From a virus (Duplodnaviria; Heunggongvirae; Uroviricota; Caudoviricetes): a DNA stretch of 64,000 nucleotides. The stretch lies in the IMG/VR virus record IMGVR_UViG_3300020426_000391, one strand, 5' to 3'. This document shows positions 29,568-61,471 of this stretch, in pieces. Position 1 is the stretch's first letter; each line of letters starts with the position of its first letter. The translations under genes and the position numbers were made by a program. The notes under the pieces were generated by a model. It was not told the origin of the DNA and made no database searches. It saw only the letters and a list, made by a program, of their open reading frames with translations.

Positions 29568-30686
29568 TCAGTCGTCCTGCCCGAATTTCCTGAGGAAGAC
29601 GTCGCAGTGCGTCTTCAGTATCGGTCGCATGAAATTGCCGAGCTTGGTCTGGCGCATGTCCTGTTCGCCGACAGCCCGGATGACGATTCCCTCGCGGATG
29701 TGCTTGGCATCGAGAGTGGTGTCCCCCTCGCGCAGTTCCTCGACCTTTGCCGCGTCGTACATGCCGCGCCACAGCACGGGTGCGGGCTGGATCCCGGCCT
29801 GCATGAGATAGCTGTCGATCTCGGTCTCGTTGAGCCAGCGCTGGCCCACGCGGATGTCGAATCCGCGCACGGATGGCTTGCTCTGGCCGTAGTGAAGCTT
29901 CTTGATGCCCGGCCCGATGGCTTCGGCGAAGAGCTGGACGGTCTGGTCGGCCGCGCGCATATTGTGGACCATCATGCCGAAGCGGCGGATGAGATCGGCG
30001 TTGCGCGCGGCGCGGATGACGGGCACCTTCTCTGAGGCCTCGCACTCGCGGAAGATGAGACCTTGTCGGGCGAGTCCCTTGGTGGCGATCGCGATCTGTC
30101 CGTCACCGTGAGCCCCTTCGACCGGTTCGTCACCGAGCCAGGTCATTTGGAGGCACTCGCCTTCGAGCTTCTCGGTGATGACGACCTCCGAGCCTTCCAG
30201 GAATTCGGGATAGGTCTTGAGTCGGCCGATCTGGTAGTCCACCTTGGCGCGAGCGACGGGCATGGCGATCTTCAGGAGTTCGGGGTCGATCTCCGGAATC
30301 CATTCGGTGATGCCGAAGTGGTCCGAGACGTCGGTGGTATCGGGCAGGTGCGCGAGTTCATCGGGCAGCTTCCACAGCAGCCCTGTCGAGAGCTGGCCGC
30401 GCAGGGTGACCGGCTTGATGACGTCGCCGCCGGGGCCGGAGAGGAGGCCCATCTCGGTTTCCTTCTGGGGATGCAGGCCCCAGAAGCCGTGCTCCTTGAG
30501 GAGATTCTCGGGCAGGCGGCAGCCCTCTGCCACGTAGACGACCCGTTCGCCGACGGCGAACCGCGGGCTGCCGTCGGGCAGGTTGTTGCTCACGGCGTCG
30601 TATCCGAGGACCTTGTAGGCTGTGAGCCGATCGGCCTTGGGGATGTGATGCGTGCCGGTGATGGGAAGAATGCGTGCGGTCGTCAT
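29568..30686 (-). CDS. ATP-dependent RNA ligase-like nucleotidyltransferase (Rnl family)
   Basis: Motif I EKLEG (KxxG), motif III LFAEAIGPG, motif IV REGIVIR (EGhVh), motif V TKLGNFMRPILK. Confidence 0.55.
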   Translation of the reverse strand: MTTARILPITGTHHIPKADRLTAYKVLGYDAVSNNLPDGSPRFAVGERVVYVAEGCRLPENLLKEHGFWGLHPQKETEMGLLSGPGGDVIKPVTLRGQLSTGLLWKLPDELAHLPDTTDVSDHFGITEWIPEIDPELLKIAMPVARAKVDYQIGRLKTYPEFLEGSEVVITEKLEGECLQMTWLGDEPVEGAHGDGQIAIATKGLARQGLIFRECEASEKVPVIRAARNADLIRRFGMMVHNMRAADQTVQLFAEAIGPGIKKLHYGQSKPSVRGFDIRVGQRWLNETEIDSYLMQAGIQPAPVLWRGMYDAAKVEELREGDTTLDAKHIREGIVIRAVGEQDMRQTKLGNFMRPILKTHCDVFLRKFGQDD

Positions 30687-32091: not shown

Positions 32092-33014
32092 GCCGCGATG
32101 GGCAGGCCGAAGTCCGATGCCAGATCGGGACGCATGCGCTCGACCTTGGGGAAGACCATGTTGCCGTTCTCGTCGAGGCCGTAATGGCTGACCTCGACCA
32201 CGTAGTGATCCATCATGGTCATGACGGCGTGGCGATCGAAACGCTTGTCGAACGATCCGACGCGACCTGCCTTCACCAGTTTGCCGTTCTCGTCGTAGCG
32301 TTTCACGTCGAGGCTGCCGGCGCCGAGCGAGGGATCGCCCTTGTTGGGGTTCCAGCCGGTGACGATGAGGTCCTCGGTCTGGCGGATCTTGACCTTCCAG
32401 GCCCGGCCGCGCTTGGTGTTGCCGTTGAGGTTGAGCGCGTGCGGCGCGGTACGATCCCAGAAGACCAGGCCTTCCATCTTGCGCCGCTCGATCTCGGCGA
32501 GCATGCCGTCGTAGTCGCGGATGTGCTCGAGATCGTATTCGACCCCCATCGTGGAGATCGGCATGGAATTGTAGACCTGCATGAAGTCCTTCACACGCTG
32601 GAAGCGATCCTCGTAGGGGTTGCAGGCATCACTGCCGTCGAGACGCAGCATGTCGAAGGGCGACACGAAGATCTCTTCGGGGTCATCGTTCAGCGCCCTC
32701 TGGAAGCTGTAGGTGCCCTCCTCGAGCGTATGGGCCTCGACGTCGAACATCCACCCTTGGGGCGCGCTCTTGAAGGCCCATACGACATGTCGCAGCTTGT
32801 CGGTCCAGTCGAGCGTGCCGTTGCGCGAGTAGATGCGGGTGTTCTCGCCGGCGGTGATGACATGAGCGCGGTTGCCGTCGCGCTTGCGCGTCCCGATCAG
32901 CTGGCCGCGCTGCCACATGCGGTTGAATTCTTCCGGTTCGATCGTCTGCACCGGCTTCTGAAGGGCCCAGCCCTGGGGGAAGAGGGTCATTTTTCCACTC
33001 CTGTGTGATTTCAT
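32088..33014 (-). CDS. ATP-dependent DNA ligase, compact phage/viral type (about 300 aa)
   Basis: Motif I TRKRDGNRAH (KxDGxR), motif III FDVEAH, motif IV EGLVFW, motif V AWKVK. Confidence 0.8.
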   Translation of the reverse strand: MKSHRSGKMTLFPQGWALQKPVQTIEPEEFNRMWQRGQLIGTRKRDGNRAHVITAGENTRIYSRNGTLDWTDKLRHVVWAFKSAPQGWMFDVEAHTLEEGTYSFQRALNDDPEEIFVSPFDMLRLDGSDACNPYEDRFQRVKDFMQVYNSMPISTMGVEYDLEHIRDYDGMLAEIERRKMEGLVFWDRTAPHALNLNGNTKRGRAWKVKIRQTEDLIVTGWNPNKGDPSLGAGSLDVKRYDENGKLVKAGRVGSFDKRFDRHAVMTMMDHYVVEVSHYGLDENGNMVFPKVERMRPDLASDFGLPIAA

Positions 33015-38116: not shown

Positions 38117-38620
38117 TCATTTCGTCCATCCCTCGACGACTGGCAGATCCGTGGCCGGCCTGTCCGCACACGGCGCCAGGTCGAGGATCATCCGATTACT
38201 CATTCCGGTGCGTACTGCGATGACGCTGCGGTTCTCGAGGACGCCGAAGGGGCCGTCCTCTATGACCTTCCGGACATCGAACGGGACCTTCCCCGACAGG
38301 GAGGTGATGATGGTGCTGGGCACTCCGGGGATCGTCACGAGATGGCTCTGGATGGTGATGTTCCCGGAAGGGTCGGTGATCAGCCAGCGCGCATCGAGAG
38401 TGGCGACGCCATCCTCGACCGTGACGGCGTATTCGAGGTCGTATCGACCGGACTTCTCGCGCCTGATCATCCTCGGACCCTTGCGCTGCCCGCTCGCCAT
38501 CTCCCGGGCGACGTGATGGGCGTCGAGCGTGATGCTCTTGCGGGCTCCGTGGTCCTGAGACGTGCTGTGTTCGAGGGCGAGGCGCGCCCAATGGGTTACG
38601 AGGACCTTCACCGGCATCAT
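38117..38620 (-). CDS. hypothetical protein
   Basis: Internal start MMPVKVLVTHW. Confidence 0.4.
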   Translation of the reverse strand: MMPVKVLVTHWARLALEHSTSQDHGARKSITLDAHHVAREMASGQRKGPRMIRREKSGRYDLEYAVTVEDGVATLDARWLITDPSGNITIQSHLVTIPGVPSTIITSLSGKVPFDVRKVIEDGPFGVLENRSVIAVRTGMSNRMILDLAPCADRPATDLPVVEGWTK

Positions 38621-39153
38621 CGGATGGTCTCGGCGGTCTCGGACCACGTGGGCCATTCACGCACCTGTGCGTGCGTCACATAGGCGATCTGCAGCCAGAT
38701 CTTGTCGCGGTCGGCATCGATGTGGCCTTCCGTGATGCTGCGCGCGTCATCCGTCATGAACGAGACGACGTCCTTGACGAGCAAGTCGCCTTCCTTGGCC
38801 TTGGATAGTGTCGAATTCATCTTGGCGTGAGGCATGCCGACGATGGAGATGAGAGCTTCACCGATGTAGGTGGCACCGCCATCGAGCGTGATCTGGCCGC
38901 AGAGGGCCGGCACGCCGTCCTGGAACCTCGCTTCCAGTCGGTATTCGATGCCCGCCTGCTCGTGGACGTAGTTCTTGGCGCCCATTTCCTCGCAGCGATT
39001 GGCGATGGCGTCCTTGATCGCCGAGAAGGCATGCCGCCTGTCCGTAGCGGAGAGGCCCTTCAGGACGGAAAGGACCTTCCGTGCGACTGGCCCGACATGT
39101 GTCGGCGCTCCGGCGTGAGTCGAGGTCCTCTTCACATCCAGTCCCCTGTCCAT
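38617..39153 (-). CDS. hypothetical protein
   Basis: Track ORF. Confidence 0.4.
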   Translation of the reverse strand: MDRGLDVKRTSTHAGAPTHVGPVARKVLSVLKGLSATDRRHAFSAIKDAIANRCEEMGAKNYVHEQAGIEYRLEARFQDGVPALCGQITLDGGATYIGEALISIVGMPHAKMNSTLSKAKEGDLLVKDVVSFMTDDARSITEGHIDADRDKIWLQIAYVTHAQVREWPTWSETAETIR

Positions 39154-39653
39154 GTCCTGAGGCCATCGTGGGTCAGCGCCCCGGCCCTGTTATCGCTTCT
39201 GAGGTCGGACACCAGGAGAGCGAACCAGGGCGGTCCCTCGTCGTATTCGTCGTGATCCTCGTCCGTCTCCACTCCGGTGTAGCGCATGCTCTCCCAAGGA
39301 GCCGTCATGACGGCTCCCACCTGTCCGAGAGTGCTTCCGACCTTGCTCGCGAAATCCATCTTGAACGACTCGGGGATGTCCTTCAGCCAAAGACGGCCGC
39401 TCGACATCTGCCATGCGGAAGTATCCAGATTGAAGAGGAGATCGGCATCGCCGTTCTTCAGGATCATGTTGCAGGAGAGACGGATGTCCCCGATGGCCAC
39501 TTCCGACAGATGGATGATCTTCTGGATGCCTCCCTGATCGCTCGTGAATGCATTGTGGGCTGACCTATGGATCTCCCTCTCGAGACCGGGGAAGCGATCG
39601 CGCGCCATATGGAGCCCGATCGCGCCGAGCAGGGATACGGGGAATGCGTTCAT
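39132..39653 (-). CDS. hypothetical protein
   Basis: Track ORF. Confidence 0.4.
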   Translation of the reverse strand: MNAFPVSLLGAIGLHMARDRFPGLEREIHRSAHNAFTSDQGGIQKIIHLSEVAIGDIRLSCNMILKNGDADLLFNLDTSAWQMSSGRLWLKDIPESFKMDFASKVGSTLGQVGAVMTAPWESMRYTGVETDEDHDEYDEGPPWFALLVSDLRSDNRAGALTHDGLRTWTGDWM

Positions 39654-39993
39654 GTCGGCGCTCCTACGCGAAGATGAGACTGATGGCGCAGCCGGTTACG
39701 ATCAGCGTGCGAAGAGCCTCGACGAGGCGGCCCCTCATGTGATCGCGTGACGTCGTGTCCAATACTGTCTGGATGATGCCCATGTTCGGGTCCTTTTCCT
39801 TCATTCGGATGTCCTCCCGCGTGGAGCGAGAAGAAAAAATTCCTGTCCGTCGTATTTTCCGCTGGACACGGATTCCCATCCTGCATATCATTCGCCGCAT
39901 GTTCACGAAGACCATCCTCTCGCAACGATATTTGCGACTATCGGAATCATCCCTTCAGGGGTGAGGTCTTGACGCGCCTCACCCCGTTAATAC

Positions 39994-40079
39994 GGAGGGT
40001 GGCGCAGGATGGCTGCAAACCGGATTCGAAACCCGGGCCTACCGAAAGGTAGAGAGTTCGACTCTTTCACCTTCCGCCA
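39994..40079 (+). tRNA. tRNA-Ser-like, anticodon CGA, type II with a non-canonical D-arm
   Basis: GGAGGGU acceptor pairs with ACCUUCC-G-CCA. Anticodon arm CCGGA UUCGAAA CCCGG, variable hairpin CUACCGAAAGGUAG, T-arm GAGAG UUCGACU CUUUC. The D region cannot be folded canonically. Confidence 0.45.
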
Positions 40080-40090
40080 GTTCACATGAA

Positions 40091-40126
40091 GGCGTCAGTT
40101 CCCCTCTCGGGATCTGACGCCTTTTT
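40091..40126 (+). terminator. rho-independent terminator inside the tRNA array
   Basis: ggcgtcag...ctgacgcc hairpin followed by TTTTT. Confidence 0.5.
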
Positions 40127-40151
40127 CGTTTCATCGCTTTCAAGGTTCAAC

Positions 40152-40241
40152 GGGTAGTCAAAGCCATACTGGATTTGCGCAACCGGACTGTAAATCCGGT
40201 CCTCGAAAGAGGGGGAGGTTCGATTCCTCGGCTGCCCACCA
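40152..40241 (+). tRNA. tRNA-Tyr-like, anticodon GUA, type II with an aberrant D-arm (possible pseudo-tRNA)
   Basis: Acceptor GGGUAGU/GCUGCCC with two G-U pairs, A73, CCA. Anticodon arm CCGGA CUGUAAA UCCGG, variable hairpin CCUCGAAAGAGG, T-loop UUCGAUU. Confidence 0.4.
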
Positions 40242-40277
40242 AGTTTAGGAGAATGAGTATCGGATGCATGCAATGAC

Positions 40278-40360
40278 GCGAGAGTGGCGGAACCGGTAGA
40301 CGCGCCCGCTTTAAGCCCGGGTGTCCTCGTGGCGTGGGGGTTCGAGTCCCTCCTCTCGCA
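40278..40360 (+). tRNA. tRNA-Leu (anticodon UAA), no CCA encoded
   Basis: GCGAGAG UG GCG GAACCGGUAGA CGC. Anticodon loop UUUAAGC with G37, long variable arm, T-arm GGGGG UUCGAGU CCCUC, acceptor 3' CUCUCGC-A. Confidence 0.7.
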
Positions 40361-40379
40361 TCATTGCCGATAACGGATC

Positions 40380-40465
40380 GCGGAGTTGGCGGAACTGGTA
40401 GACGTCCCTGCTTCAAACCCAGGCGCTCCGGATGGAGCGTGAGAGTTCGAATCTCTCACTCCGCA
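40380..40465 (+). tRNA. tRNA-Leu (anticodon CAA)
   Basis: GCGGAGU UG GCG GAACUGGUAGA CGU. Loop UUCAAAC, variable hairpin GCUCC GGAU GGAGC, T-arm GAGAG UUCGAAU CUCUC. Confidence 0.75.
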
Positions 40466-40492
40466 CCGGTCGTCCTTTCGATTTATGAGATT

Positions 40493-40581
40493 GCCCGATT
40501 GGCGAAGCTGGTAGACGCGCTGGATTCAGGATCCAGTGTCCCGTGAGGGACGTGCAGGTTCGAAGCCTGCATCGGGCACCA
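40493..40581 (+). tRNA. tRNA-Leu (anticodon CAG), CCA encoded
   Basis: GCCCGAU UG GCG AAGCUGGUAGA CGC. Anticodon stem-loop CUGGA UUCAGGA UCCAG, T-arm GCAGG UUCGAAG CCUGC, AUCGGGC-A-CCA. Confidence 0.8.
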
Positions 40582-40599
40582 ATATACAGGACGGTTCAA

Positions 40600-40686
40600 G
40601 CGACCGTGGCGAAGCTGGTAGACGCGCGACGTTGAGGTCGTCGTGGGAGAGATCCCGGGGAGGTTCGAATCCTCTCGGTCGCACCA
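40600..40686 (+). tRNA. tRNA-Leu (anticodon GAG), CCA encoded
   Basis: GCGACCG UG GCG AAGCUGGUAGA CGC. Anticodon stem-loop CGACG UUGAGGU CGUCG, T-arm GGAGG UUCGAAU CCUCU, CGGUCGC-A-CCA. Confidence 0.8.
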
Positions 40687-40696
40687 ACCGTCCTGA

Positions 40697-40770
40697 TGCT
40701 CCTTCGGCTAATGGTAAGCCGCCTGACTCTGAATCAGGAAATCGGGGTTCGACCCCCTGGGGAGCATCCA
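40697..40770 (+). tRNA. tRNA-Gln (anticodon CUG), CCA encoded
   Basis: UGCUCCU UC GGC UAAUGGUAA GCC. Anticodon stem-loop CCUGA CUCUGAA UCAGG, T-arm CGGGG UUCGACC CCCUG, GGGAGCA-U-CCA. U1-A72 is typical of Gln. Confidence 0.75.
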
Positions 40771-40846
40771 GTTTCCGGCCCGCCTTCTCACTGGTGAGCG
40801 GCCGGACGAGCGGTGGGGGTCGCCGGATGGGCGGCCCCCGCTCGGA

Positions 40847-41338
40847 TCAGATCTTCTTCAGGATGGAAGGCATCCGCTGGAGGGGGCCTATCTTCCTCTC
40901 GGAGATGCAGCTGACCTTGCTGACCGGAACCGTCGGGACCTTTCCGCGGCCGATCGTCGTCGGGCATTTGATGCAGCACTTCGGGCGCGACCCCTTGAGC
41001 TTGTCGATCGCTTCATCGACGATTGAGGTCGGAAGGACGGATCCGTCATGAATGGTCTTGCGCTTGTGCGCTTCCATTCGCATGGCGTCCTTGATCTTCT
41101 TGCGTTGTACATCGGTGAGAGCGGTCCGTCCTGCGTCGATGCTGTTATGGACCGCCTTGACCGCGGACGCGGCGACGGACGGCCTGTCCTGCCTGGTCTC
41201 TTCGGTCTTGAGATTGATCTCGCTCCTCACCTGCTCTTGTTGGGATGCATCCTGCGACTGCGCGATCGCCGGAGCGGAGACGCCGGCAAGGGTCAGGGCG
41301 GTGGCGATGGCTAGCTTCTTCATGCTGGTTCCTTTCAT
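40847..41338 (-). CDS. secreted hypothetical protein (163 aa)
   Basis: Signal peptide MKKLAIATALTLAGVSAPAIA; Cys pairs near the C-terminus. Confidence 0.5.
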   Translation of the reverse strand: MKGTSMKKLAIATALTLAGVSAPAIAQSQDASQQEQVRSEINLKTEETRQDRPSVAASAVKAVHNSIDAGRTALTDVQRKKIKDAMRMEAHKRKTIHDGSVLPTSIVDEAIDKLKGSRPKCCIKCPTTIGRGKVPTVPVSKVSCISERKIGPLQRMPSILKKI

Positions 41339-41443
41339 TCCTCGGAGAGAATCGAATTCCTCCCACCGGTCTCTTAGGATCGGTATGATGATACCCCAAG
41401 CACGAACTTTCCGAGTGAATGCAAATGGTTGTAATATGGCCCG

Positions 41444-41896
41444 TTATTTTTTCGATGCAGGGAGAATGACGGTGTCTCCTTCGCGCAGGCCCATCTGCGC
41501 GCTTTTCCCCGCCTCCAACTCCAACACTGCGATAACGGGCCTCTCGGGTGATACGTGCCTGAGGTCGCCCGGCTGCCGATCCGGTGCGACAAGGGATATC
41601 GTTCCGTCTTCCTCGATGAAGATCATGTCGAGAGGAATGAGCGTGTCCTTCATCCAGAACTGCGGGACGCGCGGTGCATCGGAGAGGAAGAGCATCCCGT
41701 CATGCGGGCCGATATCCGGCCTTCCCATGAGACCGGTCGAGATCTCGTGCGGATCGTCCGCGAGCTCGACGGTGAGATCGATGTGACCGGACGGTGTCAC
41801 TACGGCGATATCCACGGAATCGAGTGTATCCTGGCTCTGTGCACAGCATGAGAGAAGGACCGACAGCGCGGTCAGTATGAAGGCCCGTGGAATCAT
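41444..41896 (-). CDS. DUF192 (COG1430) family secreted protein
   Basis: GLMGR ... DGMLFLS ... FWMKDTLIPLDMIFI..DGTI matches the conserved DUF192 blocks. Confidence 0.65.
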   Translation of the reverse strand: MIPRAFILTALSVLLSCCAQSQDTLDSVDIAVVTPSGHIDLTVELADDPHEISTGLMGRPDIGPHDGMLFLSDAPRVPQFWMKDTLIPLDMIFIEEDGTISLVAPDRQPGDLRHVSPERPVIAVLELEAGKSAQMGLREGDTVILPASKK

Positions 41897-41952
41897 GCGC
41901 TATTCTAGGATGCGGGGGCTGGCGAAACAAAGCCGCCGACCCCCGCATGAAG

Positions 41953-43302
41953 TCACTTGTGCGTCTTGTAGGCGACGTGACGATATGTGCTGTAACTGGA
42001 GCACCGAGCCTGACCGTAGAGCCTCGCTTCGATCTGGCTGCACAGGGAAGTGCTATCGCCATTGCGGTAATAGCTCCTCCAGACGAGATTGGGCGTTCCA
42101 TCCCATGTCCGCTGCCAGGCGGTCCCGATGTAGAGGCTCTCATCCTGTGTGAAGGCCATGCCGGGAGCGGTCTCGTATTCGGTCGCATAAAGAGCACCGA
42201 TGCTGGTGATGTTCGCGCCCGACATTCCGTCGGCCTTCCACTTGTCGATCGCCTCGCGGTTCTTGCGGAACCAGTAGGCGATGTAGTCGGCCTTCTCCAG
42301 GACGCTTGCATTGCCCGCGGGAATCGGTCCGGTCCACAGGGGTATGTCCCCCTCGGGCGCGCCTTCGCTCGTGTTGTAGATGGGCTGGGTGTAGACATGC
42401 CAGACATAGTAGTTCGAGTTCGGTAGTCCGGAATCGGCGGCAGTCACGGCTCTTGCCAGATCACCCTTAGCACCGATGCCGGCAGAGCCGTCGAAATCGG
42501 CGATCACGATCGTCGATCCGTCTGGAGCACCATGCATTCTCTGCCATGCCCGCGTGACCCCGATGTAGGATATCTCGGGCCAGGAGGGCGGCATGCTGTA
42601 GAGGAAGCCGGCATCGTAGAGCGACTTGGTCGACGGGAAGGATCCCGAGCCTTCGTCGATCCAGGCATCGGCAGCGGCCTCGACCTGCCGGATGTAGCAT
42701 GCCAGCCACGTCCCGCGAACGTTCATCGCGGCATTTGCTGCCGGCTGGGCGCCGCATATGTCTGGCTGCGTGAAGCGCACGGGAGCCTGCGGACCCGTAT
42801 CCACGGGACCTCCTCCGGTCGCCACCTCTCCTATGCAGCATGGCTCACGGCCTCCGAGCCTTCCGTCCGGGGAGTCGGACCCGTCGCAGCGATAGACACC
42901 GGTCGCGGTGTTCGCCTTGGGAAGGTCGAGCTGTTGCCTCGCCTTGAGGCAGATGTTCAGACTTTCCTCGTGATCCGTGGGGCCGAGCTTGGCTCGTATC
43001 ATGCCGCCGTCGTAGTCGATCGCCCAGCGGTCGACCTCCATCGTCCGTGTCCCGATCGGCTGGTAGTCCAGATAGCCGGCCGATATCAATTCCTGCACCG
43101 GGTCGCCGCTCGTCGGATAGTGACCCTCCTGACGGTAGTAGAGCTCTAGTGCCGCCTCCATCTGTGCACCCTCGCCGACCAGGCGGCCGGCTTCCGCCTC
43201 GATCCGTCCGTTTCCGAAGGCGTCACCACCATAATACAGGATGAAGAGGACCGAGGCAGCTGCCAGCAGGACACCTAGGATGACGAGAGTGATCGTGGTC
43301 AT
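41953..43302 (-). CDS. membrane-anchored extracytoplasmic protein (about 449 aa), Cys-rich
   Basis: N-terminal TM MTTITLVILGVLLAAASVLFILYY, then a large Cys-containing domain. Start adjusted to MTTITLV. Confidence 0.5.
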   Translation of the reverse strand: MTTITLVILGVLLAAASVLFILYYGGDAFGNGRIEAEAGRLVGEGAQMEAALELYYRQEGHYPTSGDPVQELISAGYLDYQPIGTRTMEVDRWAIDYDGGMIRAKLGPTDHEESLNICLKARQQLDLPKANTATGVYRCDGSDSPDGRLGGREPCCIGEVATGGGPVDTGPQAPVRFTQPDICGAQPAANAAMNVRGTWLACYIRQVEAAADAWIDEGSGSFPSTKSLYDAGFLYSMPPSWPEISYIGVTRAWQRMHGAPDGSTIVIADFDGSAGIGAKGDLARAVTAADSGLPNSNYYVWHVYTQPIYNTSEGAPEGDIPLWTGPIPAGNASVLEKADYIAYWFRKNREAIDKWKADGMSGANITSIGALYATEYETAPGMAFTQDESLYIGTAWQRTWDGTPNLVWRSYYRNGDSTSLCSQIEARLYGQARCSSYSTYRHVAYKTHK

Positions 43303-43438
43303 GGCATTTCCGTCGATGGAATAGAAGGATAGCCGTGTTTTTAGGATGAATGGACTTCGTCCCGCAACCACCCGAGGAGGGGTTTATGCTTGCGCATGCG
43401 GAAATGTCCGAAGGCTCTCGTCGGGCGAGTGCGGATGC

Positions 43439-43477
43439 AAAAAAGGGGTGGCATTCCTCTGAATGCCACCCCTTTTG
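43439..43477. terminator. bidirectional rho-independent terminator
   Basis: a6 - ggggtggcattcctctgaatgccacccc - tttt; GCATCC motif on the minus-strand side. Confidence 0.6.
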
Positions 43478-43483
43478 CTGTAT

Positions 43484-43561
43484 TGGCGCGCCCTAGTGGA
43501 CTCGAACCACTGACCTACGGTTTAGAAGACCGTTGCTACTATCCAGCTGAGCTAAGAGCGC
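43484..43561 (-). tRNA. tRNA-Arg (anticodon UCU), CCA encoded
   Basis: RC GCGCUCUUAGCUCAGCUGGAUAGUAGCAACGGUCUUCUAAACCGUAGGUCAGUGGUUCGAGUCCACUAGGGCGCGCCA. Confidence 0.75.
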
Positions 43562-43571
43562 GTTCCGGCCG

Positions 43572-43862
43572 TCATGCGGCCTTGGGAATATCTTTCTCGA
43601 CGACGCCTGTCACGGTCACGGCTTCTCGGCCGGTCCAGCGCATCGTGAGGGTCAGCGCGTCGCCGTCGTTAGCCTGCGCCTCGAGGAGGGCCTTCGCGTT
43701 CTTCCCCTGCGCGATCAGGGAGACCATTCGGCTCTCCTTCTTGAGCTGGACGTTCATCACGCCCTTGGCCATCGGGTTGGCATCCGTCCCGTCCTTCTTG
43801 AGATACTGGATCGTCACCTTGTTGGTGCTCTCGGGGCCCTTCTTGCCCTTGGTGTAACGCAT
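43572..43862 (-). CDS. hypothetical small basic protein (96 aa)
   Basis: Track ORF. Confidence 0.4.
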   Translation of the reverse strand: MRYTKGKKGPESTNKVTIQYLKKDGTDANPMAKGVMNVQLKKESRMVSLIAQGKNAKALLEAQANDGDALTLTMRWTGREAVTVTGVVEKDIPKAA

Positions 43863-43874
43863 GTCTTTTTCCCT

Positions 43875-44051
43875 TCAGACCAGGATGTTCAGTATCTGCC
43901 CGCTACCCCCGGAGATCGGCCGTGTGACGATCGGATCGTCCCTCAGCTTCGCCTGACGGGCCATGCCCTCGTCGATGACCTTCGCGCGTGCACGGCTGAG
44001 CGCCTGCACATTGGCGTACGCCTGGGTGGTATAGTCTCCGAACAGTGCCAT
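43875..44051 (-). CDS. possible small protein (58 aa), below the track cut-off
   Basis: My translation: MALFGDYTTQAYANVQALSRARAKVIDEGMARQAKLRDDPIVTRPISGGSGQILNILV. Confidence 0.25.
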   Translation of the reverse strand: MALFGDYTTQAYANVQALSRARAKVIDEGMARQAKLRDDPIVTRPISGGSGQILNILV

Positions 44052-44075
44052 GACTGATCTCCTGGTGGATGAAGA

Positions 44076-44152
44076 TGGTGCGCTCGACAGGATTCGAACC
44101 TGTGGCCTCCGGATTAGGAATCCGATGCTCTATCCGACTGAGCTACGAGCGC
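44076..44152 (-). tRNA. tRNA-Arg (anticodon CCU), copy 2, CCA encoded
   Basis: Same cloverleaf as copy 1 with 3 substitutions (cctccgg vs cccccgg; ccgactg vs ccagctg). Confidence 0.85.
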
Positions 44153-44185
44153 GTGCGAGAGATTTTTCCTCTCTCGAATTCTGAT

Positions 44186-44446
44186 TCAGGTCCTCGGACC
44201 CCTGTCGGAAGGTCTGAAGTGCGTGGGTCTGTAATGCCGTGGGATCGGCTCTGATCCATGTCGCGTCCACGGCGAGCGCCAGGCCTTCTTGCCCTCGTCG
44301 AAATAGCAATCAGGTACGCGATACTCGTCACGCGGGAGGCCGGAAGCGGATGTGCGCACGATCCACAGGTCCACCCGCGAGGAGCGTCCGTCCCTGGGCG
44401 CCTCGGAGATATCCCGCCAATCGTCGTGCACCGCTTCCTGCGTCAT
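44186..44446 (-). CDS. hypothetical small protein (86 aa)
   Basis: Track ORF. Confidence 0.35.
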   Translation of the reverse strand: MTQEAVHDDWRDISEAPRDGRSSRVDLWIVRTSASGLPRDEYRVPDCYFDEGKKAWRSPWTRHGSEPIPRHYRPTHFRPSDRGPRT

Positions 44447-44467
44447 CGTCCTTCTCGGTTTTTTCGA

Positions 44468-44553
44468 ATGGAGGCCCAGACAGGATTTGAACCTGCGTTC
44501 CTTTCGGAAACCATGGATTTGCAGTCCAGTACCTTACCGCTCGGTCACCGGGC
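44468..44553 (-). tRNA. atypical type II (long variable arm) tRNA with anticodon GCA and discriminator U73, CCA encoded
   Basis: RC GGCCCGG UG ACC GAGCGGUAA GGU A CUGGA CUGCAAA UCCAU GGUUUCCGAAAGGAAC GCAGG UUCAAAU CCUGU CUGGGCC U CCA. Confidence 0.6.
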
Positions 44554-44599
44554 CCCTTCGATGCGACCTTGTAGGATGAGGTCGCGAATTGTCAAATGC

Positions 44600-45250
44600 C
44601 TACCAGCGTTCTCCGCAGATGAACGCCATGTTCCCGGCTTGCGGACGGATCATGAGATTGCGTTCCGCCATGATCTCGAGCCCCCAGGTCTTCTCCTCCA
44701 GGCCGGGAACGCGCTGGACGCGCAGCTTCAGGCCGAGTTCCGGCACCTCGATGATCTCGGTGGGGATGAGCTTGCCCTTGAAGGGGCCATGCTGCCGCCA
44801 TACGACGAACTCCTCGGGCTCGCCCTGCGGTTCGCCGAAGGCCTTCTCGGCCTGCTTGATTGCGCTGTCACGGGACTTCTCGGCAGAGGCGATCCGGTCT
44901 GCCGCCCACTTGGGCAGACGCTTCATACGCCTTTCCTCCAGTTCCGCGGCGTCCAGCCTGGCATCGGGCACGTCCGGTCCTTCGATGTCGAGGTTCTGCG
45001 CGGCGTCTTCGAGAACGGTCTTCAGATCGAATCCGTCGATCGCGTCGATGAGCTCCTCGAGCGCTCCGTGGTCCATGGCCATGATCTGTCCGTTGTCGCC
45101 TTCACGCGCTCCATCGCTCATGTTGTCGAGCGATTCGCCGAGATCGTCGCGGATGCCACGCAGGTCGTCGAGAGCGGCCTCCATGGTCGTTCGCGCTGCC
45201 GCGATCGCTTCGAGAGCCTTCTTCGCCTTCGCGCTGCGCTGCTTGTTCAT
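44600..45250 (-). CDS. hypothetical protein (about 216 aa)
   Basis: Internal start MNKQRSAKAKK; ATGA overlap with the upstream gene. Confidence 0.4.
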   Translation of the reverse strand: MNKQRSAKAKKALEAIAAARTTMEAALDDLRGIRDDLGESLDNMSDGAREGDNGQIMAMDHGALEELIDAIDGFDLKTVLEDAAQNLDIEGPDVPDARLDAAELEERRMKRLPKWAADRIASAEKSRDSAIKQAEKAFGEPQGEPEEFVVWRQHGPFKGKLIPTEIIEVPELGLKLRVQRVPGLEEKTWGLEIMAERNLMIRPQAGNMAFICGERW

Positions 45251-45645
45251 GTCTGCTTCTCCCTGTCCCTCATTCGGGTTCCGCGCGTGATGGCGTTCGA
45301 ATCCGTCTTGCTCATCGGCCCCATGATGGCGCATGTCTGTGTCGGGCCGGCAAAGACCGTCCTGCCCTGGTCCCGCACGATCTCGACGTGGACGCCACGT
45401 TTGCGCGCTCTCTCGACGACCTTGGCCAGATGGTCTTCATCATCTACCTCGATGCATATCTTCGGTTGCCCGTCGGCGAGATACTGGTTGACGAGAAGCG
45501 GCTTGTCGATGGCGAGGCGGACGCCCGCCGAGAAGGCCGCATGTGCTGCCTGGACCTCGGACTTGCCTCTGGTCATCTCGTCGAGGTCGCCGCGGAACGC
45601 GAGCACCATCCTCATTTCCGCGTGGTTCTCCGCTTTCTTGTCCAT
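45247..45645 (-). CDS. peptidyl-tRNA hydrolase, PTH2 family
   Basis: RMVLAFRGDLDEMTRGKSEVQAAHAA, GQPKICIEVDDEDHL and DQGRTVFAGPTQTCAIMGP align block by block with archaeal/eukaryotic Pth2. Confidence 0.7.
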   Translation of the reverse strand: MDKKAENHAEMRMVLAFRGDLDEMTRGKSEVQAAHAAFSAGVRLAIDKPLLVNQYLADGQPKICIEVDDEDHLAKVVERARKRGVHVEIVRDQGRTVFAGPTQTCAIMGPMSKTDSNAITRGTRMRDREKQT

Positions 45646-46091
45646 CAGGCCGCCTGCTTCCGTGCTGCACCCCAGGGCTCGGGTTCGAGATTGTGGACCT
45701 CGACGCCGTAGAGGACGGCCTGGAAGAGCGCGATCCTGTCCTGCTTCCGCAGGAGATTGAAGCGTTTGGCCAGATATGTCGCCGTGAGGAACAGCCGGAA
45801 GAATTCGTCGCTCTGGGTGGTGATGAGGTTTATCTCGCCCTTGCGCCAGGAACGGAAGCCACCGGCGTCGTTTCCCGTGTAGAATTCGGGTGAACCCTCT
45901 TGGCTGAAACCAGCCTCCTGAAGTTTTTCGACTGGAACTTCTCGAACCAGCACCAGCCAGTCTTCGTCGGTATCCGTTGGCGCCGGATCACAGGTCACCC
46001 TGCTGCCGACCGGTTCCGCGTTGGCCAGCACGTCCGCGAGAGCCTCTGCGATCGTCTCGGGCAGCTTGGGGTTGACCGTCTTTTCCATCAC
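45645..46091 (-). CDS. hypothetical protein (148 aa)
   Basis: Track ORF immediately downstream of serS. Confidence 0.4.
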   Translation of the reverse strand: MMEKTVNPKLPETIAEALADVLANAEPVGSRVTCDPAPTDTDEDWLVLVREVPVEKLQEAGFSQEGSPEFYTGNDAGGFRSWRKGEINLITTQSDEFFRLFLTATYLAKRFNLLRKQDRIALFQAVLYGVEVHNLEPEPWGAARKQAA

Positions 46092-46100
46092 CTTCTCCTC

Positions 46101-47366
46101 TCAGCCAATTGCTTCCCTGTTTCCCATGTAGGGTCGCAGGGCCTCGGGGATGGCGACGCGTCCGTCTTCGAGAAGATTGTTCTCGATGATCGCGACAAGA
46201 GCGCGTCCCACGGCGAGCCCGCTCCCGTTGAGGGTGTGCACATGACGCGTCTGGCCGTCCTCTCCACGATAGCGGGCGTTCATGCGCCGCCCCTGGAAGT
46301 CGCCGCACCAGCTGATGCTGGCGATCTCGCGGTAGGCGTTCTGTCCCGGCATCCAGACCTCGATGTCGTAGGTCCGGCGCGCCGCGAATCCCATGTCGCC
46401 TGCACACAGCAGGACGACGCGGTAGGGCAGTTCGAGCCTGTCGAGGATCCGGCAGGCGTCGGCTAGCATCCTGTCGTGTTCCGCCTGCGCGTCCTCTTCG
46501 CGGCAGATCGTCACCAGCTCGACCTTCTCGAACTGGTGCTGCCGGATGTATCCGCGCGTATCCCGGCCGGCGGCGCCTGCCTCGGCGCGGAAGCACTGAG
46601 TCAGCGCCGTCAGTCGCATGGGCCTCTCGAGATCTACGATCTGTTCTCGCACGAGATTGGTGAGGCCCACCTCGGCGGTCGGGATGAGCCACCGGTCATC
46701 GGCGGTCACGAACAGGTCCTCTTCGAACTTCGGGAGTTGCCCGGTGCCTTCGAGGACTTCACGTTTCACCAAGAGCGGGATCGCCGTCTCCTGGTAACCG
46801 GCCTCGTCCGTCTGGATGTCGAGCATGAACTGGCCGAGTGCGCGCTGGAGTCGCGCCATCTGGCCGCGCAGCACTGTGTTGCGTGTGCCGGCGAGGAGCG
46901 TGCCCGCCTCGAAGTCCATGCCGAGTTCGGGGCCGAAGTCGGCATGGTGCCTGCCGGCCTCGCCGGGATCTCCTCGGCGGGCGATCTCGACATTGTCGTT
47001 TTCGTCCGCGCCGTCAGGCACATCCTCGGCCGGAATGTTGGGTAGATTGAGGAGATGTTGGTGCTGCTGTGCGGGGATGTCGTCCTGCTTCAGGTCGTAT
47101 GCGGCGATCCAGTCCTTTGCTTCCGTCACTTCCCCCTTGAGGCGCTCGGCCTTTTCGGTGTCGCCGGCCTTCATCGCCTCGCCGATCTGCCTGCTCTTGG
47201 CGTTGCGCTCGGCGAGGCGCTTCTGCTTCTCAGTCTCGTTGTCACGCAGGGCCCGGTCGAGGACGAGCAGTCGCTTGACCTGCTCTCCGGCGTCGGGAAC
47301 GCCCCGACGCGTCAATCCGTCGACATATGTCTGCGGATCGGCCCGCATTGCCTTGATGTCGTGCAT
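46101..47366 (-). CDS. serS: seryl-tRNA synthetase
   Basis: Full-length class II SerRS, including TGQLPKFEEDLF, CFRAEAGAAGRDTRGYIRQHQFEKVE, GDMGFAARRTYDIEVWMPGQNAYREIAS and HTLNGSGLAVGRALVAIIEN. Near-colinear with E. coli SerS. Confidence 0.95.
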   Translation of the reverse strand: MHDIKAMRADPQTYVDGLTRRGVPDAGEQVKRLLVLDRALRDNETEKQKRLAERNAKSRQIGEAMKAGDTEKAERLKGEVTEAKDWIAAYDLKQDDIPAQQHQHLLNLPNIPAEDVPDGADENDNVEIARRGDPGEAGRHHADFGPELGMDFEAGTLLAGTRNTVLRGQMARLQRALGQFMLDIQTDEAGYQETAIPLLVKREVLEGTGQLPKFEEDLFVTADDRWLIPTAEVGLTNLVREQIVDLERPMRLTALTQCFRAEAGAAGRDTRGYIRQHQFEKVELVTICREEDAQAEHDRMLADACRILDRLELPYRVVLLCAGDMGFAARRTYDIEVWMPGQNAYREIASISWCGDFQGRRMNARYRGEDGQTRHVHTLNGSGLAVGRALVAIIENNLLEDGRVAIPEALRPYMGNREAIG

Positions 47367-47378
47367 GGGATTTTCCTT

Positions 47379-47903
47379 TCAGATTCCCTGTTTCATGGCC
47401 GCCAGGGTCAGTCTGTCGACTCCCACGGCCCAGCCGCATCCGTTCTCGTAGCTTCCGCCGCCGGCGATCTGCTTCTGCGCACCGAGTGCTTCCACCCGGG
47501 CCTCGAAGCCGTTGCGCGAGTAGTAGGAGAGACCGCGCACGGCGTCTCCGTCGATGTCGCATTCGACGCCTGTCGCCTTCAGGGCGCTGACGAGCAGGTC
47601 GCGGCATTCGTCTTCGTAGTAACCGGGCCCTAGGACTTCGATCCCGAACTGGGTGAATTCGCGGTAGCGCCCGGCCTGCGGCCGCTCGTAGCGATAGCAG
47701 CGCTGCTCGTAGAAGACCCGGATCGGCTTCGGGAGCGACTTGCCCCAGCGTTCGCGGTATTCGCGCTGCAGGAGTGCGGTTGCCTCGGGAATGAGCGTGC
47801 AGGGGCGCCCGCCCTTGTCGTCGAAGGTCCACATCTGTCCTTCGATCTCGCGTCCCGACCGGTCGTACCATACGTCCGGTTCGGCGATCGCGGGGAGGAT
47901 CAC
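47379..47903 (-). CDS. HisRS-like class II aaRS catalytic-core fragment (about 174 aa); lacks the insertion and anticodon-binding domains and has a non-ATG (GTG) start
   Basis: Motif 1 region MWTFDDKGGRPCTLIPEATA, motif 2 YRYERPQAGRYREFTQFG, HisA-like RGLSYYSRNGFE, motif 3 GGGSYENGCGWAVGVDRL. The upstream in-frame sequence runs into a TAG without an ATG. Confidence 0.55.
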   Translation of the reverse strand: MILPAIAEPDVWYDRSGREIEGQMWTFDDKGGRPCTLIPEATALLQREYRERWGKSLPKPIRVFYEQRCYRYERPQAGRYREFTQFGIEVLGPGYYEDECRDLLVSALKATGVECDIDGDAVRGLSYYSRNGFEARVEALGAQKQIAGGGSYENGCGWAVGVDRLTLAAMKQGI

Positions 47904-48494: not shown

Positions 48495-48568
48495 TGGAGC
48501 GGACGACCGGATTCGAACCGGCATTCTCAGCTTGGAAGGCTGATGCTCTACCATTGAACTACGTCCGC
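48495..48568 (-). tRNA. tRNA-Gly (anticodon UCC), CCA encoded
   Basis: RC GCGGACGUAGUUCAAUGGUAGAGCAUCAGCCUUCCAAGCUGAGAAUGCCGGUUCGAAUCCGGUCGUCCGCUCCA. Confidence 0.85.
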
Positions 48569-61458: not shown

Positions 61459-61471
61459 GGATTTTTCCCTT

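Follow-up and report, generated by a model that had tools for sequence, protein, structure and literature searches.

Phage tRNA arrays are routine in themselves. The question raised by this one is what its two irregular leading members are, whose array it is and what it does for its owner. The window, the 64,000-nt stretch of DNA analysed here, carries seven tRNA genes on the plus strand within 777 bp (39994–40770); they are separated by spacers of 10–72 nt and flanked by minus-strand genes (Table 1). We consider it likely that this is a cluster of a marine jumbo phage, 266 kb or more in size, and that it combines five canonical tRNAs with two of the 8/4 type and belongs to a decoding set owned by the phage. 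Nothing else at the locus is as informative as the 8/4 shape of both leading tRNAs, which was missed in the original prediction.

ARAGORN called six plus-strand genes in the array, Tyr-gta, Leu-taa, Leu-caa, Leu-cag, Leu-gag and Gln-ctg, with the limits listed in Table 1, and gave no call for the Ser-CGA-like gene at its head. The Rfam model RF00005 recognised, at its gathering score, the four Leu genes and Gln only (43.8–53.7 bits). The seventh gene is backed by orthologues and covariation, with compensatory base changes in the homologues: ARAGORN calls tRNA-Ser(cga) in the sister contig L033 and in Erythrobacter phage XM05, and over the three sequences covariation is seen in three of four D-stem pairs and two of four variable-stem pairs. 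Seven tRNA genes had been predicted; the majority were called by both programs (ARAGORN 6/7, RF00005 5/7), the Ser-CGA gene being added through its homologues. All four leucine anticodons claimed (UAA, CAA, CAG and GAG) were called by ARAGORN and Rfam alike, and the array does run against the prevailing orientation, the flanking genes and the six other tRNAs called by ARAGORN in the window all lying on the minus strand.

Conservation within the array is highest in Leu-UAA and Leu-CAA, each 94% identical to its counterpart in L033. Against the same contig, Leu-CAG shows a compensatory change in the anticodon stem, Leu-GAG is compensated in three stems (anticodon, variable and T), and Gln-CUG has one such change in the acceptor stem. 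At the level of sequence, the four Leu genes and Gln-CUG are thus canonical tRNAs that purifying selection maintains.

Table 1. Features of the tRNA array and of its context in the window.
Feature	Position	Strand	Remarks
RNA ligase, RNA or tRNA repair context	29568..30686	-	Pfam RNA_ligase and PHROG RNA ligase
Sigma-70-like promoter candidate, TGGACA-17-TATCAT	39863..39891	+	about 100 nt upstream of first tRNA
Leader hairpin	39958..39985	+	10-bp stem, invariant loop UGACGCG(C); fold -22 kcal/mol
tRNA-Ser(CGA), compact class II	39994..40079	+	G73; CCA encoded; assigned to 8/4 tRNA-Ser family
Intrinsic-terminator-like hairpin and U tract	40088..40129	+	between Ser and Tyr genes; -25.8 kcal/mol, z -6.3
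tRNA-Tyr(GUA)	40152..40241	+	8-bp acceptor, 4-bp T and 6-bp anticodon stems; A73; CCA encoded
tRNA-Leu(UAA), canonical class II	40278..40360	+	C31-C39 mismatch; CCA not encoded; 47.9 bits
tRNA-Leu(CAA), canonical class II	40380..40467	+	C31-C39 mismatch; CCA not encoded; 43.8 bits
tRNA-Leu(CAG), canonical	40493..40581	+	CCA encoded; 53.2 bits
tRNA-Leu(GAG), canonical	40600..40686	+	CCA encoded; 47.4 bits
tRNA-Gln(CUG), canonical	40697..40770	+	CCA encoded; 53.7 bits
Two adjacent GC-rich hairpins	40774..40844		between array end and convergent minus-strand gene 40847-41338
Peptidyl-tRNA hydrolase PTH2	45247..45645	-	context gene
Seryl-tRNA synthetase (SerRS), full length	46101..47366	-	Pfam Seryl_tRNA_N and tRNA-synt_2b

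The two leading genes are non-canonical class II tRNAs with an 8/4 acceptor branch. ARAGORN draws the Tyr gene in this form, and its minimum free energy fold is likewise 8/4: C8 pairs with G79, whereas the fifth T pair of a 7/5 arrangement would be G-G. Its variable arm is long, with a 4-bp stem and a GAAA loop. Bacterial TyrRS recognises A73, G34-U35 and a long variable arm; A73 and the long variable arm are features of tRNA-Leu too. The GUA anticodon, A73 and the long arm are all present in the window's gene, which would fit charging by TyrRS. The Ser gene, taken alone, folds as a cloverleaf (-36.1 kcal/mol, z -2.5) whose variable arm is long (5-bp stem, GAAA loop), but its sequence is compatible with 7/5 and 8/4 alike and the assignment to 8/4 is decided by family comparison alone. 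The eighth acceptor pair is formed in 17/17 sequences of the 8/4 Ser family (GC in 16, CG in one) and the fifth T-stem pair of a 7/5 tRNA in 5/17; the acceptor, T and anticodon stems of these 17 sequences contain many compensatory double changes, and CCA is encoded in every one of them. A search of IMG/VR with a pattern for the compact Ser gene gave no match.

The irregular D-arms noticed earlier in the first two genes are real. In the Ser gene the D stem counts 4 bp and closes a 5-nt loop, against the long D stem and tetraloop of typical allo-tRNAs; relatives of this gene have 4 bp with a tetraloop (L033) or 5 bp with a tetraloop (contig L087). The Tyr D stem is degenerate, having 4 bp, a bulged C and one mismatch. 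We attribute these irregularities to both genes being 8/4 rather than 7/5 tRNAs. The 12-bp acceptor branch split 8/4 instead of 7/5 also accounts for their covariance-model scores below threshold; the Tyr gene gave no RF00005 match at the gathering score and departs from the canonical 7/5 cloverleaf. Against the 8/4 Tyr family model R1, in whose training set it was included, it scores 70.3 bits.

The best-scoring Rfam model for both genes is bacterial tRNA-Sec (RF01852), with which they share a longer acceptor stem, a long variable arm, a compact D arm and, in the Tyr gene, a 6-bp anticodon stem. A tRNA-Sec identity was rejected, however: the scores, 25.3 bits (Ser) and 29.8 bits (Tyr), fall short of the 47 bits required, the anticodons read CGA and GUA rather than UCA, and the branch has 12 bp, not 13. 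The closer match is with the 8/4 tRNA-Ser and tRNA-His already published from alphaproteobacterial phage clusters (Mukai 2017, Nucleic Acids Res 45:2776, PMC5389517). These, too, have a 12-bp branch split 8/4 and an extended variable arm, are detected only by the tRNA-Sec model and below its threshold, and are sited in tRNA clusters of alphaproteobacterial phages. In the D arm, where theirs pairs a short loop with a regular stem, the likeness is less certain. By its sequence features, including G73 and a serine anticodon, the window's Ser(CGA) is a member of this 8/4 tRNA-Ser class. The array differs from the published cases in having no 8/4 His and in its second 8/4 gene, which reads Tyr codons and carries A73. 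The main text of that report gives Ser, His, Cys, Sec and many-anticodon allo-tRNAs as 8/4 identities, with no tyrosine there, and we did not find 8/4 tRNA-Tyr(GUA) in the searchable literature.

The Tyr gene has many relatives. An 8/4 tRNA-Tyr(GUA) is present in 50 IMG/VR contigs. Of 36 distinct copies, 34 escape ARAGORN; Rfam, in a scan of 15 loci, misses 14/14 tested. In an alignment of 26 sequences, 96.8% of the cells are paired and double changes occur at 20 of the 23 pairs. The eighth acceptor pair is formed in 21/26 (UA in 18, CG in two, GC in one) and the fifth T pair of a 7/5 tRNA in 0/26; A73 is found in all 26 and an encoded CCA in 25. The D arm is mostly a 5-bp stem with a 5-nt loop; the search pattern itself prescribed the anticodon-loop and D-arm motifs, whose invariance within the family is therefore uninformative. 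With an 8/4 Tyr sequence as query, blastn against INPHARED gave no match at E <= 1e-5, and the matches gained at E <= 10 were confined to the anticodon arm. Among arrays of at least 10 tRNAs, 32/34 have no Tyr gene besides the 8/4 one, and the six phage arrays to which ARAGORN assigns 19 of the 20 amino acids all lack only Tyr, the gap being filled by 8/4 Tyr. These comparisons define 8/4 Tyr(GUA), as far as sequence can, as a large phage family that fills the sole missing amino acid in otherwise complete sets. A second Tyr type, represented by 13 distinct genes, is 7/5, lacks GG in the D loop and has a T loop of 8 nt. It occurs in L033 and in phages of Caulobacter (CcrColossus among them), Brevundimonas, Sphingobium and Rhizobium; its gene is unannotated in 15/15 cultured-phage records checked.

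Signals for transcription were sought around the array. The promoter candidate is the single such site in 38500–45000, and since 1.7 are expected there by chance it is weak evidence. The leader hairpin is 100% identical in L033; across seven lineages its stem is compensatory at four pairs and its loop invariant. The leader motif TCTTGACGCGCC was rejected as a general phage promoter (8 window matches with <=2 mismatches, 10.9 expected) and as a sigma-70 -35 box (no workably spaced -10 box in the window, none in relatives). The intrinsic terminator that had been proposed after the first tRNA was borne out. A stem of 11 plus 4 bp (40088–40124) is followed by UUUUUCGUUU, the predicted make-up of an intrinsic (rho-independent) terminator, and the core GCGUCAG...CCC...GGG.UCUGRCGC...UUUCGUUUCA is kept in 7/7 related phage lineages, compensatory at three pairs; a strict version of the hairpin pattern had no match on IMG/VR, which shows that this collection does not include the window itself. 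The loop of the leader hairpin is complementary to the 5' arm of the terminator and might modulate read-through. The Tyr gene lies directly downstream of this strong terminator with no promoter space between, which leaves the expression of the last six genes unexplained. Enclosed by the conserved leader hairpin and the conserved terminator, the Ser gene would be a separate expression unit, and Tyr, the four Leu genes and Gln may be expressed via read-through or a second start. The two hairpins after the array have no U tract; they fold at -50.6 kcal/mol (z -3.5) when read on the plus strand and at -41.3 kcal/mol when read on the minus strand, and would act as a transcription stop.

The window belongs to an element of marine metagenomic origin, 266 kb or longer (contig ERR599112 k127_115918), made up mostly of unknown genes and ORFans. 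It is probably an uncultured marine jumbo phage with an alphaproteobacterial host; its nearest relatives are phages of alphaproteobacteria. The possibility that the array is instead a tRNA operon of a bacterial chromosome or of a plasmid has to be weighed, as the 64-kb window and the 10 kb past its left end showed no capsid, terminase or tail gene, and the window includes genes of cellular type (HWE histidine kinase, cation efflux protein, FtsK and SerRS). We judge it highly improbable. The element is gene-dense and codes almost on a single strand, with scattered tRNAs, and identical proteins recur in several ocean samples; the closest homologues of the RNA ligase come from Brevundimonas and Caulobacter jumbo phages (33–37% identity). 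A pattern search of 185,579 reference genomes for the Ser-hairpin-Tyr unit gave six matches, none of them beside a tRNA and at least some inside coding-like sequence, so a chromosomal origin was rejected; the possibility of a conserved chromosomal locus, raised in the original prediction, found no support there. Occurrences of the conserved Ser-hairpin-Tyr unit were confined to cultured phages, viral contigs of IMG/VR and metagenome contigs; the fuller Ser / hairpin / Tyr / Leu...Gln unit is shared by the cultured Erythrobacter phages XM05 and vB_EliS-L02 and by viral contigs of IMG/VR. With no structural gene in the window or left flank, phage identity rests on these relatives, and a phage origin of the array is supported indirectly. 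If the array is a phage's, classical codon compensation would have it supply tRNAs for codons used more by the phage than by its host. Ser-CGA, Leu-GAG, Leu-CAG and Gln-CUG do decode common codons in the window, and the minus-strand tRNAs include Arg-CCU (two copies), Arg-UCU and Gly-UCC, which fit a use of AGG (16% of Arg), AGA (7% of Arg) and GGA (29% of Gly) that is high for a 62% GC genome. Even so, we regard this account as unlikely. Over 61 minus-strand ORFs of the window, UUA (3 codons, 0.3%) and UUG (29, 2.5%) make up 2.8% of 1150 Leu codons, a share too small for the codon needs of the phage to account for Leu-UAA and Leu-CAA, yet these are the genes most conserved; the earlier suggestion that the array supplies rare codons finds no support here. 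Four of the five usual Leu isoacceptors are present regardless of demand, and relatives carry near-complete sets covering 19–20 amino acids.

Doubt may also be cast on the leading two genes themselves, which could be relics, or tRNA-like RNAs with no part in translation (pseudogenes, processing signals or decoys soaking up anticodon nucleases), leaving protein synthesis to the five canonical genes. Both score under the Rfam tRNA threshold and the Tyr D stem is degenerate; the Tyr slot shares 60% identity with that of L033, near the spacer level (57%), and L033 holds a different Tyr type there, so the window's Tyr copy could be decaying. Three pairs in the anticodon stem of the XM05 Tyr gene are non-standard, and allo-tRNA-like sequences were inactive in E. 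coli (Mukai 2017, PMC7609411). Such a loss of function nevertheless appears quite unlikely to us, in view of the compensatory double changes in the acceptor, T and anticodon stems of 26 Tyr and 17 Ser sequences, the conserved discriminator and the CCA encoded in 25/26 and 17/17 of them, respectively; moreover, 8/4 Tyr is the sole Tyr candidate in arrays covering 19 other amino acids. That L033 keeps a Tyr gene of another conserved type points to replacement rather than decay. The two genes may still act as decoys. A translating 8/4 GUA tRNA might, in turn, be charged with serine or leucine and recode Tyr codons: SerRS charges 8/4 allo-tRNAs with non-serine anticodons regardless of the anticodon (PMC5389517, PMC7609411), the phage's own SerRS lies 5 kb from the array, and A73 and the long variable arm are shared with tRNA-Leu. 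This is very improbable. SerRS substrates have G73 or U73 (PMC5389517), as does the adjacent Ser(CGA) with its G73, whereas A73 is found in the window's GUA gene and in 26/26 family members, for which reason we do not class it as a serine allo-tRNA; the gene instead matches the bacterial TyrRS identity set (A73, G34-U35 and the long variable arm). As such arrays have no other Tyr tRNA, missense charging would leave Tyr codons corrupted and dependent on host supply alone. The window covers about a quarter of the genome, and a canonical tRNA-Tyr or a TyrRS may lie elsewhere in it.

Our preferred reading remains a decoding set owned by the phage. The array, a short plus-strand unit amid minus-strand genes, would form this set together with SerRS, PTH2, the six further tRNAs and RNA-repair enzymes. 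SerRS, 92% identical in L033 and in the same relative position there, could charge the compact tRNA-Ser, whose G73 is a SerRS identity element. Further genes of the window include a HisRS-like fragment, RlaP and phosphoesterases. A small paralogous protein family around the array was considered and rejected; BLASTP matched only 48656-49237 with 49192-49725. The set would sustain translation if the host tRNA pool were inadequate, depleted or cleaved, and its main job would not be to match phage codon bias.

Similar arrays are known from large and jumbo phages (vB_EliS-L02, XM05, phiCbK-like phages such as CcrColossus, T5 and mycobacteriophage cluster C1), in which tRNA genes are packed tightly on one strand with interspersed terminators, and the genome encodes tRNA- and RNA-related enzymes. 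L02 and XM05 also share the order Ser-CGA / hairpin / Tyr / Leu-CAG / Leu-GAG ... Gln-CUG, although L02 has more than 30 array genes against seven in the window. Unlike these arrays, the window keeps four adjacent Leu isoacceptors in an orientation inverted relative to the surrounding genes. Identity of cultured phages to the window is at most ~75% and confined to short stretches, and a megablast of 20 kb of it against INPHARED gave one 71-bp chance-like match only.

Phage tRNAs counter tRNA nucleases, and retron-Eco7 PtuAB depletes tRNA-Tyr (PMC10264068, PMC11555353). As in the case of T5 tRNA-Tyr and retron-Eco7 PtuAB (PMC11555353), a phage tRNA-Tyr heads a tRNA-rich region in the window, and, as with the anti-defence phage tRNAs of PMC11555353 and PMC10264068, the tRNAs are structurally unlike those of host type and an RNA ligase is encoded in the genome. 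In contrast to the anticodon-loop variants of PMC10264068, the window's tRNAs differ in acceptor/T architecture and D arm; their anticodon-loop changes are minor, namely 31-39 mismatches in Ser-CGA, Leu-UAA and Leu-CAA. Evasion of nucleases by the array, in line with the earlier idea that such arrays compensate for tRNA-targeting defences, is plausible and compatible with its non-canonical tRNAs and with the RNA-repair genes. We put forward only as a hypothesis that the 8/4 shape makes a poor substrate for tRNA-targeting nucleases.

A wider speculation, which we hold to be somewhat unlikely, is that phage tRNA-Tyr has repeatedly been rebuilt, its forms being swapped as cassettes in one slot, because tRNA-Tyr-depleting nucleases of the host or of competitors (PtuAB or colicin E5 type) recognise shape. 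If so, the odd tRNAs would be structural escape variants unlike every host tRNA-Tyr, and many phage tRNA sets reported as Tyr-less would be complete. Two architectures of one isoacceptor in the same slot of sister phages make escape from tRNA-directed immunity testable. Natural 8/4 tRNAs would now include the tyrosine identity, a natural test of whether such a geometry is accepted by TyrRS, EF-Tu, RNase P and the CCA-adding enzyme, and 8/4 tRNA-Tyr may serve as a scaffold in orthogonal tRNA design. The tyrosine tRNA of many phages has been overlooked by standard annotation, so that published counts of phage tRNA repertoires, and the avoidance arguments built on them, are biased.

The plus-strand array of the window is a real phage tRNA array of a well-known kind, with four leucine isoacceptors. 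Of the 12 tRNA genes that ARAGORN calls here, six make up the plus-strand run and six are on the minus strand; all four Leu anticodons of the original prediction (UAA, CAA, CAG, GAG) are called by both ARAGORN and Rfam. At gathering score Rfam recovers just the four Leu genes and Gln of the array (43.8–53.7 bits); relaxed Rfam gives Tyr 29.8 bits and Ser 25.3 bits, with the selenocysteine tRNA model only (threshold 47). The seventh predicted gene, Ser(CGA), is supported by other means. Its sequence alone folds as a cloverleaf of four arms whose variable arm is long, ARAGORN calls tRNA-Ser(cga) for its orthologues in the sister contig L033 and Erythrobacter phage XM05, and three compact orthologues have 97% of cells paired, with double-sided changes at three of four D-stem pairs. 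The array indeed runs against the prevailing orientation, as both the neighbouring genes and the six other tRNAs lie on the minus strand. The terminator expected after the first tRNA is found as a hairpin 3′ of the Ser gene (−25.8 kcal/mol, z −6.3) followed by a U tract. The irregularity noted in the leading pair is architectural: both genes are 8/4 tRNAs (8-bp acceptor and 4-bp T stem; the usual split is 7/5), and the Tyr D stem has four pairs only, with a bulge and a mismatch.

Features of the window and of related loci (window coordinates unless prefixed)
Feature	Position	Strand	Detection or remarks
Leader hairpin	39958-39985		
Ser(CGA)	39994-40079	+	cloverleaf fold, orthologues; no ARAGORN or Rfam call
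Terminator-like hairpin and U tract	40088-40129		
Tyr-gta	40152-40241	+	ARAGORN
Leu-taa	40278-40360	+	ARAGORN, Rfam
Leu-caa	40380-40467	+	ARAGORN, Rfam
Leu-cag	40493-40581	+	ARAGORN, Rfam
Leu-gag	40600-40686	+	ARAGORN, Rfam
Gln-ctg	40697-40770	+	ARAGORN, Rfam
Arg-CCU (two copies), Arg-UCU, Gly-UCC	4214-4290, 43484-43561, 44076-44152, 48495-48568	all −	
CAU tRNA	22734-22809	−	G1-U72, not initiator-like
tRNA-Cys(GCA)	44469-44554	−	86 nt, 7/5, U73, long variable arm UUCC-GAAA-GGAA
RlaP RNA-repair nucleotidyltransferase, RNA ligase, ATP-dependent ligase, two metallophosphoesterases	6244-7326, 29568-30686, 32088-33014, 58618-59493, 60358-61533	−	
Translation gene cluster	45247-47903	−	PTH2, 148-aa unknown protein, full-length SerRS, 174-aa HisRS-like fragment
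HWE-type histidine kinase with PAS domain, adjoining response regulator	52315-53712	kinase −, regulator +	
Second tRNA-Tyr type	CcrColossus NC_019406.1 68365-68450 (= L109:10366-10451); L090:1473-1556		

The window Ser gene can fold as 7/5, 8/4 or 9/3, since it has each of G8, G59 and C75, bases that are unchanged in its three closest orthologues. A covariance model neutral between the splits, run on the phage loci already collected, picked up additional compact Ser genes, their anticodons being CGA, UGA, GCU and GGA. Across this family (n = 17) the eighth acceptor pair is formed in every member (GC 16, CG 1), versus 5/17 for the fifth T-stem pair of a 7/5 split; this makes the family 8/4, and the window gene fits it. 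A 7/5 fold was also considered for the closest extra CGA orthologues, L087 (79.5 bits) and L056 (77 bits), and rejected, both having A at the window's G59. The family matches the (8/4) tRNA-Ser of alphaproteobacterial phage tRNA clusters, a class already published (PMC5389517). The orthologous slot in Erythrobacter phage vB_EliS-L02 (L02) and in the L009 group of IMG/VR contigs holds an ordinary 97-nt 7/5 tRNA-Ser(CGA) with the same flanking hairpins; thus the architecture has been exchanged within a conserved frame. Contig L010 carries two adjacent 8/4 tRNA-Ser genes (GCU and GGA; L010:3713-3800 and 3809-3896) without an ARAGORN call, and the same pair occurs in L009, L011, L013, L019 and L026, between Thr-ggt and Cys.

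The window Tyr gene opens with GGGUAGUC, eight bases that form the acceptor stem with GGCUGCCC; its T stem, GAGG/CCUC, could gain a fifth pair only as G-G. ARAGORN draws an 8-bp acceptor, a 4-bp T and a 6-bp anticodon stem. The layout recurs, with different acceptor sequences, in L02, XM05 and IMG/VR contigs L009–L014. For the L02-like form, a search pattern combining its D arm with its anticodon loop retrieved 50 IMG/VR contigs with 36 distinct tRNA sequences; the carriers span a wide GC range, and the gene often lies inside dense tRNA arrays. In the alignment of 26 distinct 8/4 sequences, 96.8% of cells are paired versus 36–45% with slid partners, and 20 of 23 pairs show double-sided changes. 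The eighth acceptor pair is UA in 18 sequences, CG in two, GC in one and unpaired in five. The extra T-stem pair of the 7/5 alternative is formed in 0/26, and this alternative was rejected for the family. Columns AAGCC, GG, GGCA and CUGUAAA are invariant by construction, being fixed by the search pattern; CUGUAA is still common to all of the window, XM05 and L009-group genes, which were found via a different pattern.

The bacterial TyrRS identity set comprises anticodon GUA, A73 and a long variable arm; in the 8/4 family A73 is present in 26/26, the long arm in all and an encoded CCA in all but one. SerRS substrates carry G73 or U73 (PMC5389517). The comparative argument from the arrays is stronger than that from identity elements. 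The 8/4 gene occurs at 51 loci (the 50 IMG/VR contigs and the L02 locus); ARAGORN calls ten or more tRNAs at 34 of them, and at 32 of these 34 it calls no other Tyr gene. Tyr is missing from 10 of the 11 arrays covering at least 17 amino acids and is the sole gap in all six scored 19/20. Tyrosine charging is thereby predicted from the identity set and the array gaps.

ARAGORN detects 2 of the 36 distinct 8/4 Tyr sequences, and Rfam at gathering score recovers none at the 14 positions checked, each within a few bases of canonical tRNAs. The 8/4 structures in the searchable parts of the literature are Ser, His, Cys, Sec and allo-tRNAs (PMC5389517). Mukai et al. (2017) folded by hand all tRNAs of their phage clusters, and tyrosine is absent from the main text of that paper (PMC5389517). 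Elsewhere in the searchable literature we found no natural 8/4 Tyr, the non-canonical Tyr tRNAs there being synthetic only. As far as can be checked, the widespread phage family to which the window gene belongs is undescribed and unannotated. In one IMG/VR contig with an 8/4 tRNA-Tyr there is also a GOLLD RNA (L017:8382-8832, 171.8 bits), and a tRNA lies within it at 8446-8519.

The Tyr slot is only 60% identical between the window and L033, and the adjacent spacer 57%. The L033 gene (L033:4788-4873) is 7/5, with a D arm GGGC-ACGAGUGA-GCCC lacking GG and an 8-nt T loop. It represents a second non-canonical tRNA-Tyr(GUA) type (T loop UGCRAAUU or CGCACAUA; 94.9% of cells paired, double changes in 13/23 pairs), which is present in 18 IMG/VR contigs and in cultured phages of Caulobacter (CcrColossus, CcrPW, CcrSC), Brevundimonas, Sphingobium and Rhizobium, and annotated in 0/15 cultured-phage records. 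L033 carries this conserved type where the window has the 8/4 one, the Tyr gene not being lost; thus the slot is a site of replacement between architectures. Such replacement argues for selection on the gene as against simple decay, and does not itself prove activity of the window copy.

The other five genes, all canonical, are 94% (Leu-UAA), 94% (Leu-CAA), 87% (Leu-CAG), 72% (Leu-GAG) and 84% (Gln) identical to L033. Their stem substitutions are compensatory, for example in the acceptor stem of Gln, in the anticodon stem of Leu-CAG and in three stems of Leu-GAG (anticodon, variable and T), and the genes are under purifying selection for structure. At the base of the anticodon loop, C31-C39 mismatches in Leu-UAA (40310-40316) and Leu-CAA (40412-40418) and an A31-C39 mismatch in Ser-CGA (40024-40032), all kept in L033, formally create 9-nt loops.

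Seven lineages share a conserved unit in which the Ser gene stands between the leader hairpin and the terminator. The leader stem has double-sided changes at four pairs around an invariant loop, UGACGCG, and the terminator core with the following UUUCGUUUCA is nearly invariant. In 7/7 lineages this loop (39968-39975) is complementary to the terminator 5′ arm GCGUCAG (40091-40098), and could form a leader–trailer or anti-terminator pairing that encloses the tRNA and competes with the terminator. A weak sigma-70-like site lies ~100 nt upstream of the Ser gene. The U tract is 22 nt from the Tyr gene, so the six downstream genes need read-through or an overlapping start; regulated read-through could be hypothesized.

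Contig L033 is a sister phage. Its array repeats the seven slots of the window, and on the minus strand the next tRNAs are again Arg-tct, Arg-cct, Cys and Gly-tcc; DNA identity over the array is 82%, and the SerRS, HisRS-like, PTH2 and DUF7239 proteins are 83–97% identical at matching relative positions. The array is also syntenic with those of the two cultured Erythrobacter phages. That of L02 runs Ser-cga, hairpin, Tyr-gta, Leu-cag, Leu-gag, Thr, His, Gln-ctg and onward, in a block of 32 tRNAs and a tmRNA; XM05 is similar. A degenerate pattern derived from the conserved hairpin found six IMG/VR contigs and, in metagenomes, 16 matches with four genuine relatives. In 185,579 reference genomes, none of its six matches has a tRNA beside it; some at least lie within coding-like sequence, and we take all six as chance hits. 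Identical arrays at chromosomal loci, the finding that was to speak against a phage array, were therefore not encountered at this sensitivity.

A comparison of the window (GC ~62%) with 50,697 phage records gave no near match, and the IMG/VR collection searched does not contain it. Marine metagenome contigs of 227,742, 169,395 and 265,950 bp encode residue-for-residue copies of the window's SerRS and FtsK-like proteins, several contigs with such copies being from Tara Oceans samples. Phage identity is indirect, because no virion gene was seen in the window. It encodes an FtsK-like ATPase, an S8 protease, two C5 DNA methylases and DUF192, and most remaining ORFs have no assigned family. The nearest counterparts of its RNA ligase are in jumbo phages of Brevundimonas and Caulobacter (33–37%); RlaP, the two ligases and the two metallophosphoesterases make up an RNA-/nucleic-acid-repair-type set. 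The translation gene cluster has tRNAs on its flanks and is kept in L033 (73–97% identity); its HisRS-like protein is a class II core fragment. HWE kinases are typical of alphaproteobacteria, and the one encoded here hints at an alphaproteobacterial host. At 48656-49725, two adjacent minus-strand ORFs of 193 and 177 aa form a paralogous pair, with 28% identity (E 3e-10); BLASTP gave no match for further small ORFs near the array that look alike by eye.

The suggestion that the array supplies demanded codons does not fit the two Leu genes for UUA and UUG (codon usage of 61 minus-strand ORFs, 14,055 codons). Leu codons are CUC 50%, CUG 37%, CUU 6%, CUA 4%, UUG 2.5% and UUA 0.3%. The codons in chief use are thus those read by Leu-GAG and Leu-CAG, yet conservation within the array is highest for Leu-UAA and Leu-CAA, whose codons hardly occur. 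The scattered Arg-CCU (two copies), Arg-UCU and Gly-UCC match AGG (16%), AGA (7%) and GGA (29%), which are unusually frequent for 62% GC. ATA makes up 10% of Ile codons, so the CAU tRNA might be tRNA-Ile2. tRNA-Cys is normally of short-arm class I; genes as long as the window's (84–86 nt) occur in L033, L019 and the L009 group.

According to published work, defences that deplete tRNAs can be overcome by phage-encoded tRNAs (PMC11555353, PMC10264068); retron-Eco7 PtuAB, for instance, depletes tRNA-Tyr and is counteracted by phage tRNAs (PMC11555353), and changes in phage tRNAs have been proposed to confer insensitivity to anticodon nucleases (PMC10264068). The altered Ser and Tyr architecture is compatible with such an escape, as are the mismatches at 31-39 of Ser-CGA, Leu-UAA and Leu-CAA. 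What the locus adds is that its leading two genes are 8/4 tRNAs, the Tyr gene coming from a widespread phage family that seems to be undescribed. Given the window's SerRS, PTH2 and RNA-repair enzymes and the near-complete tRNA sets of the array's relatives, we favour a decoding-set reading: the array may be part of a phage-owned decoding set that would lessen the reliance of translation on the host's tRNAs.
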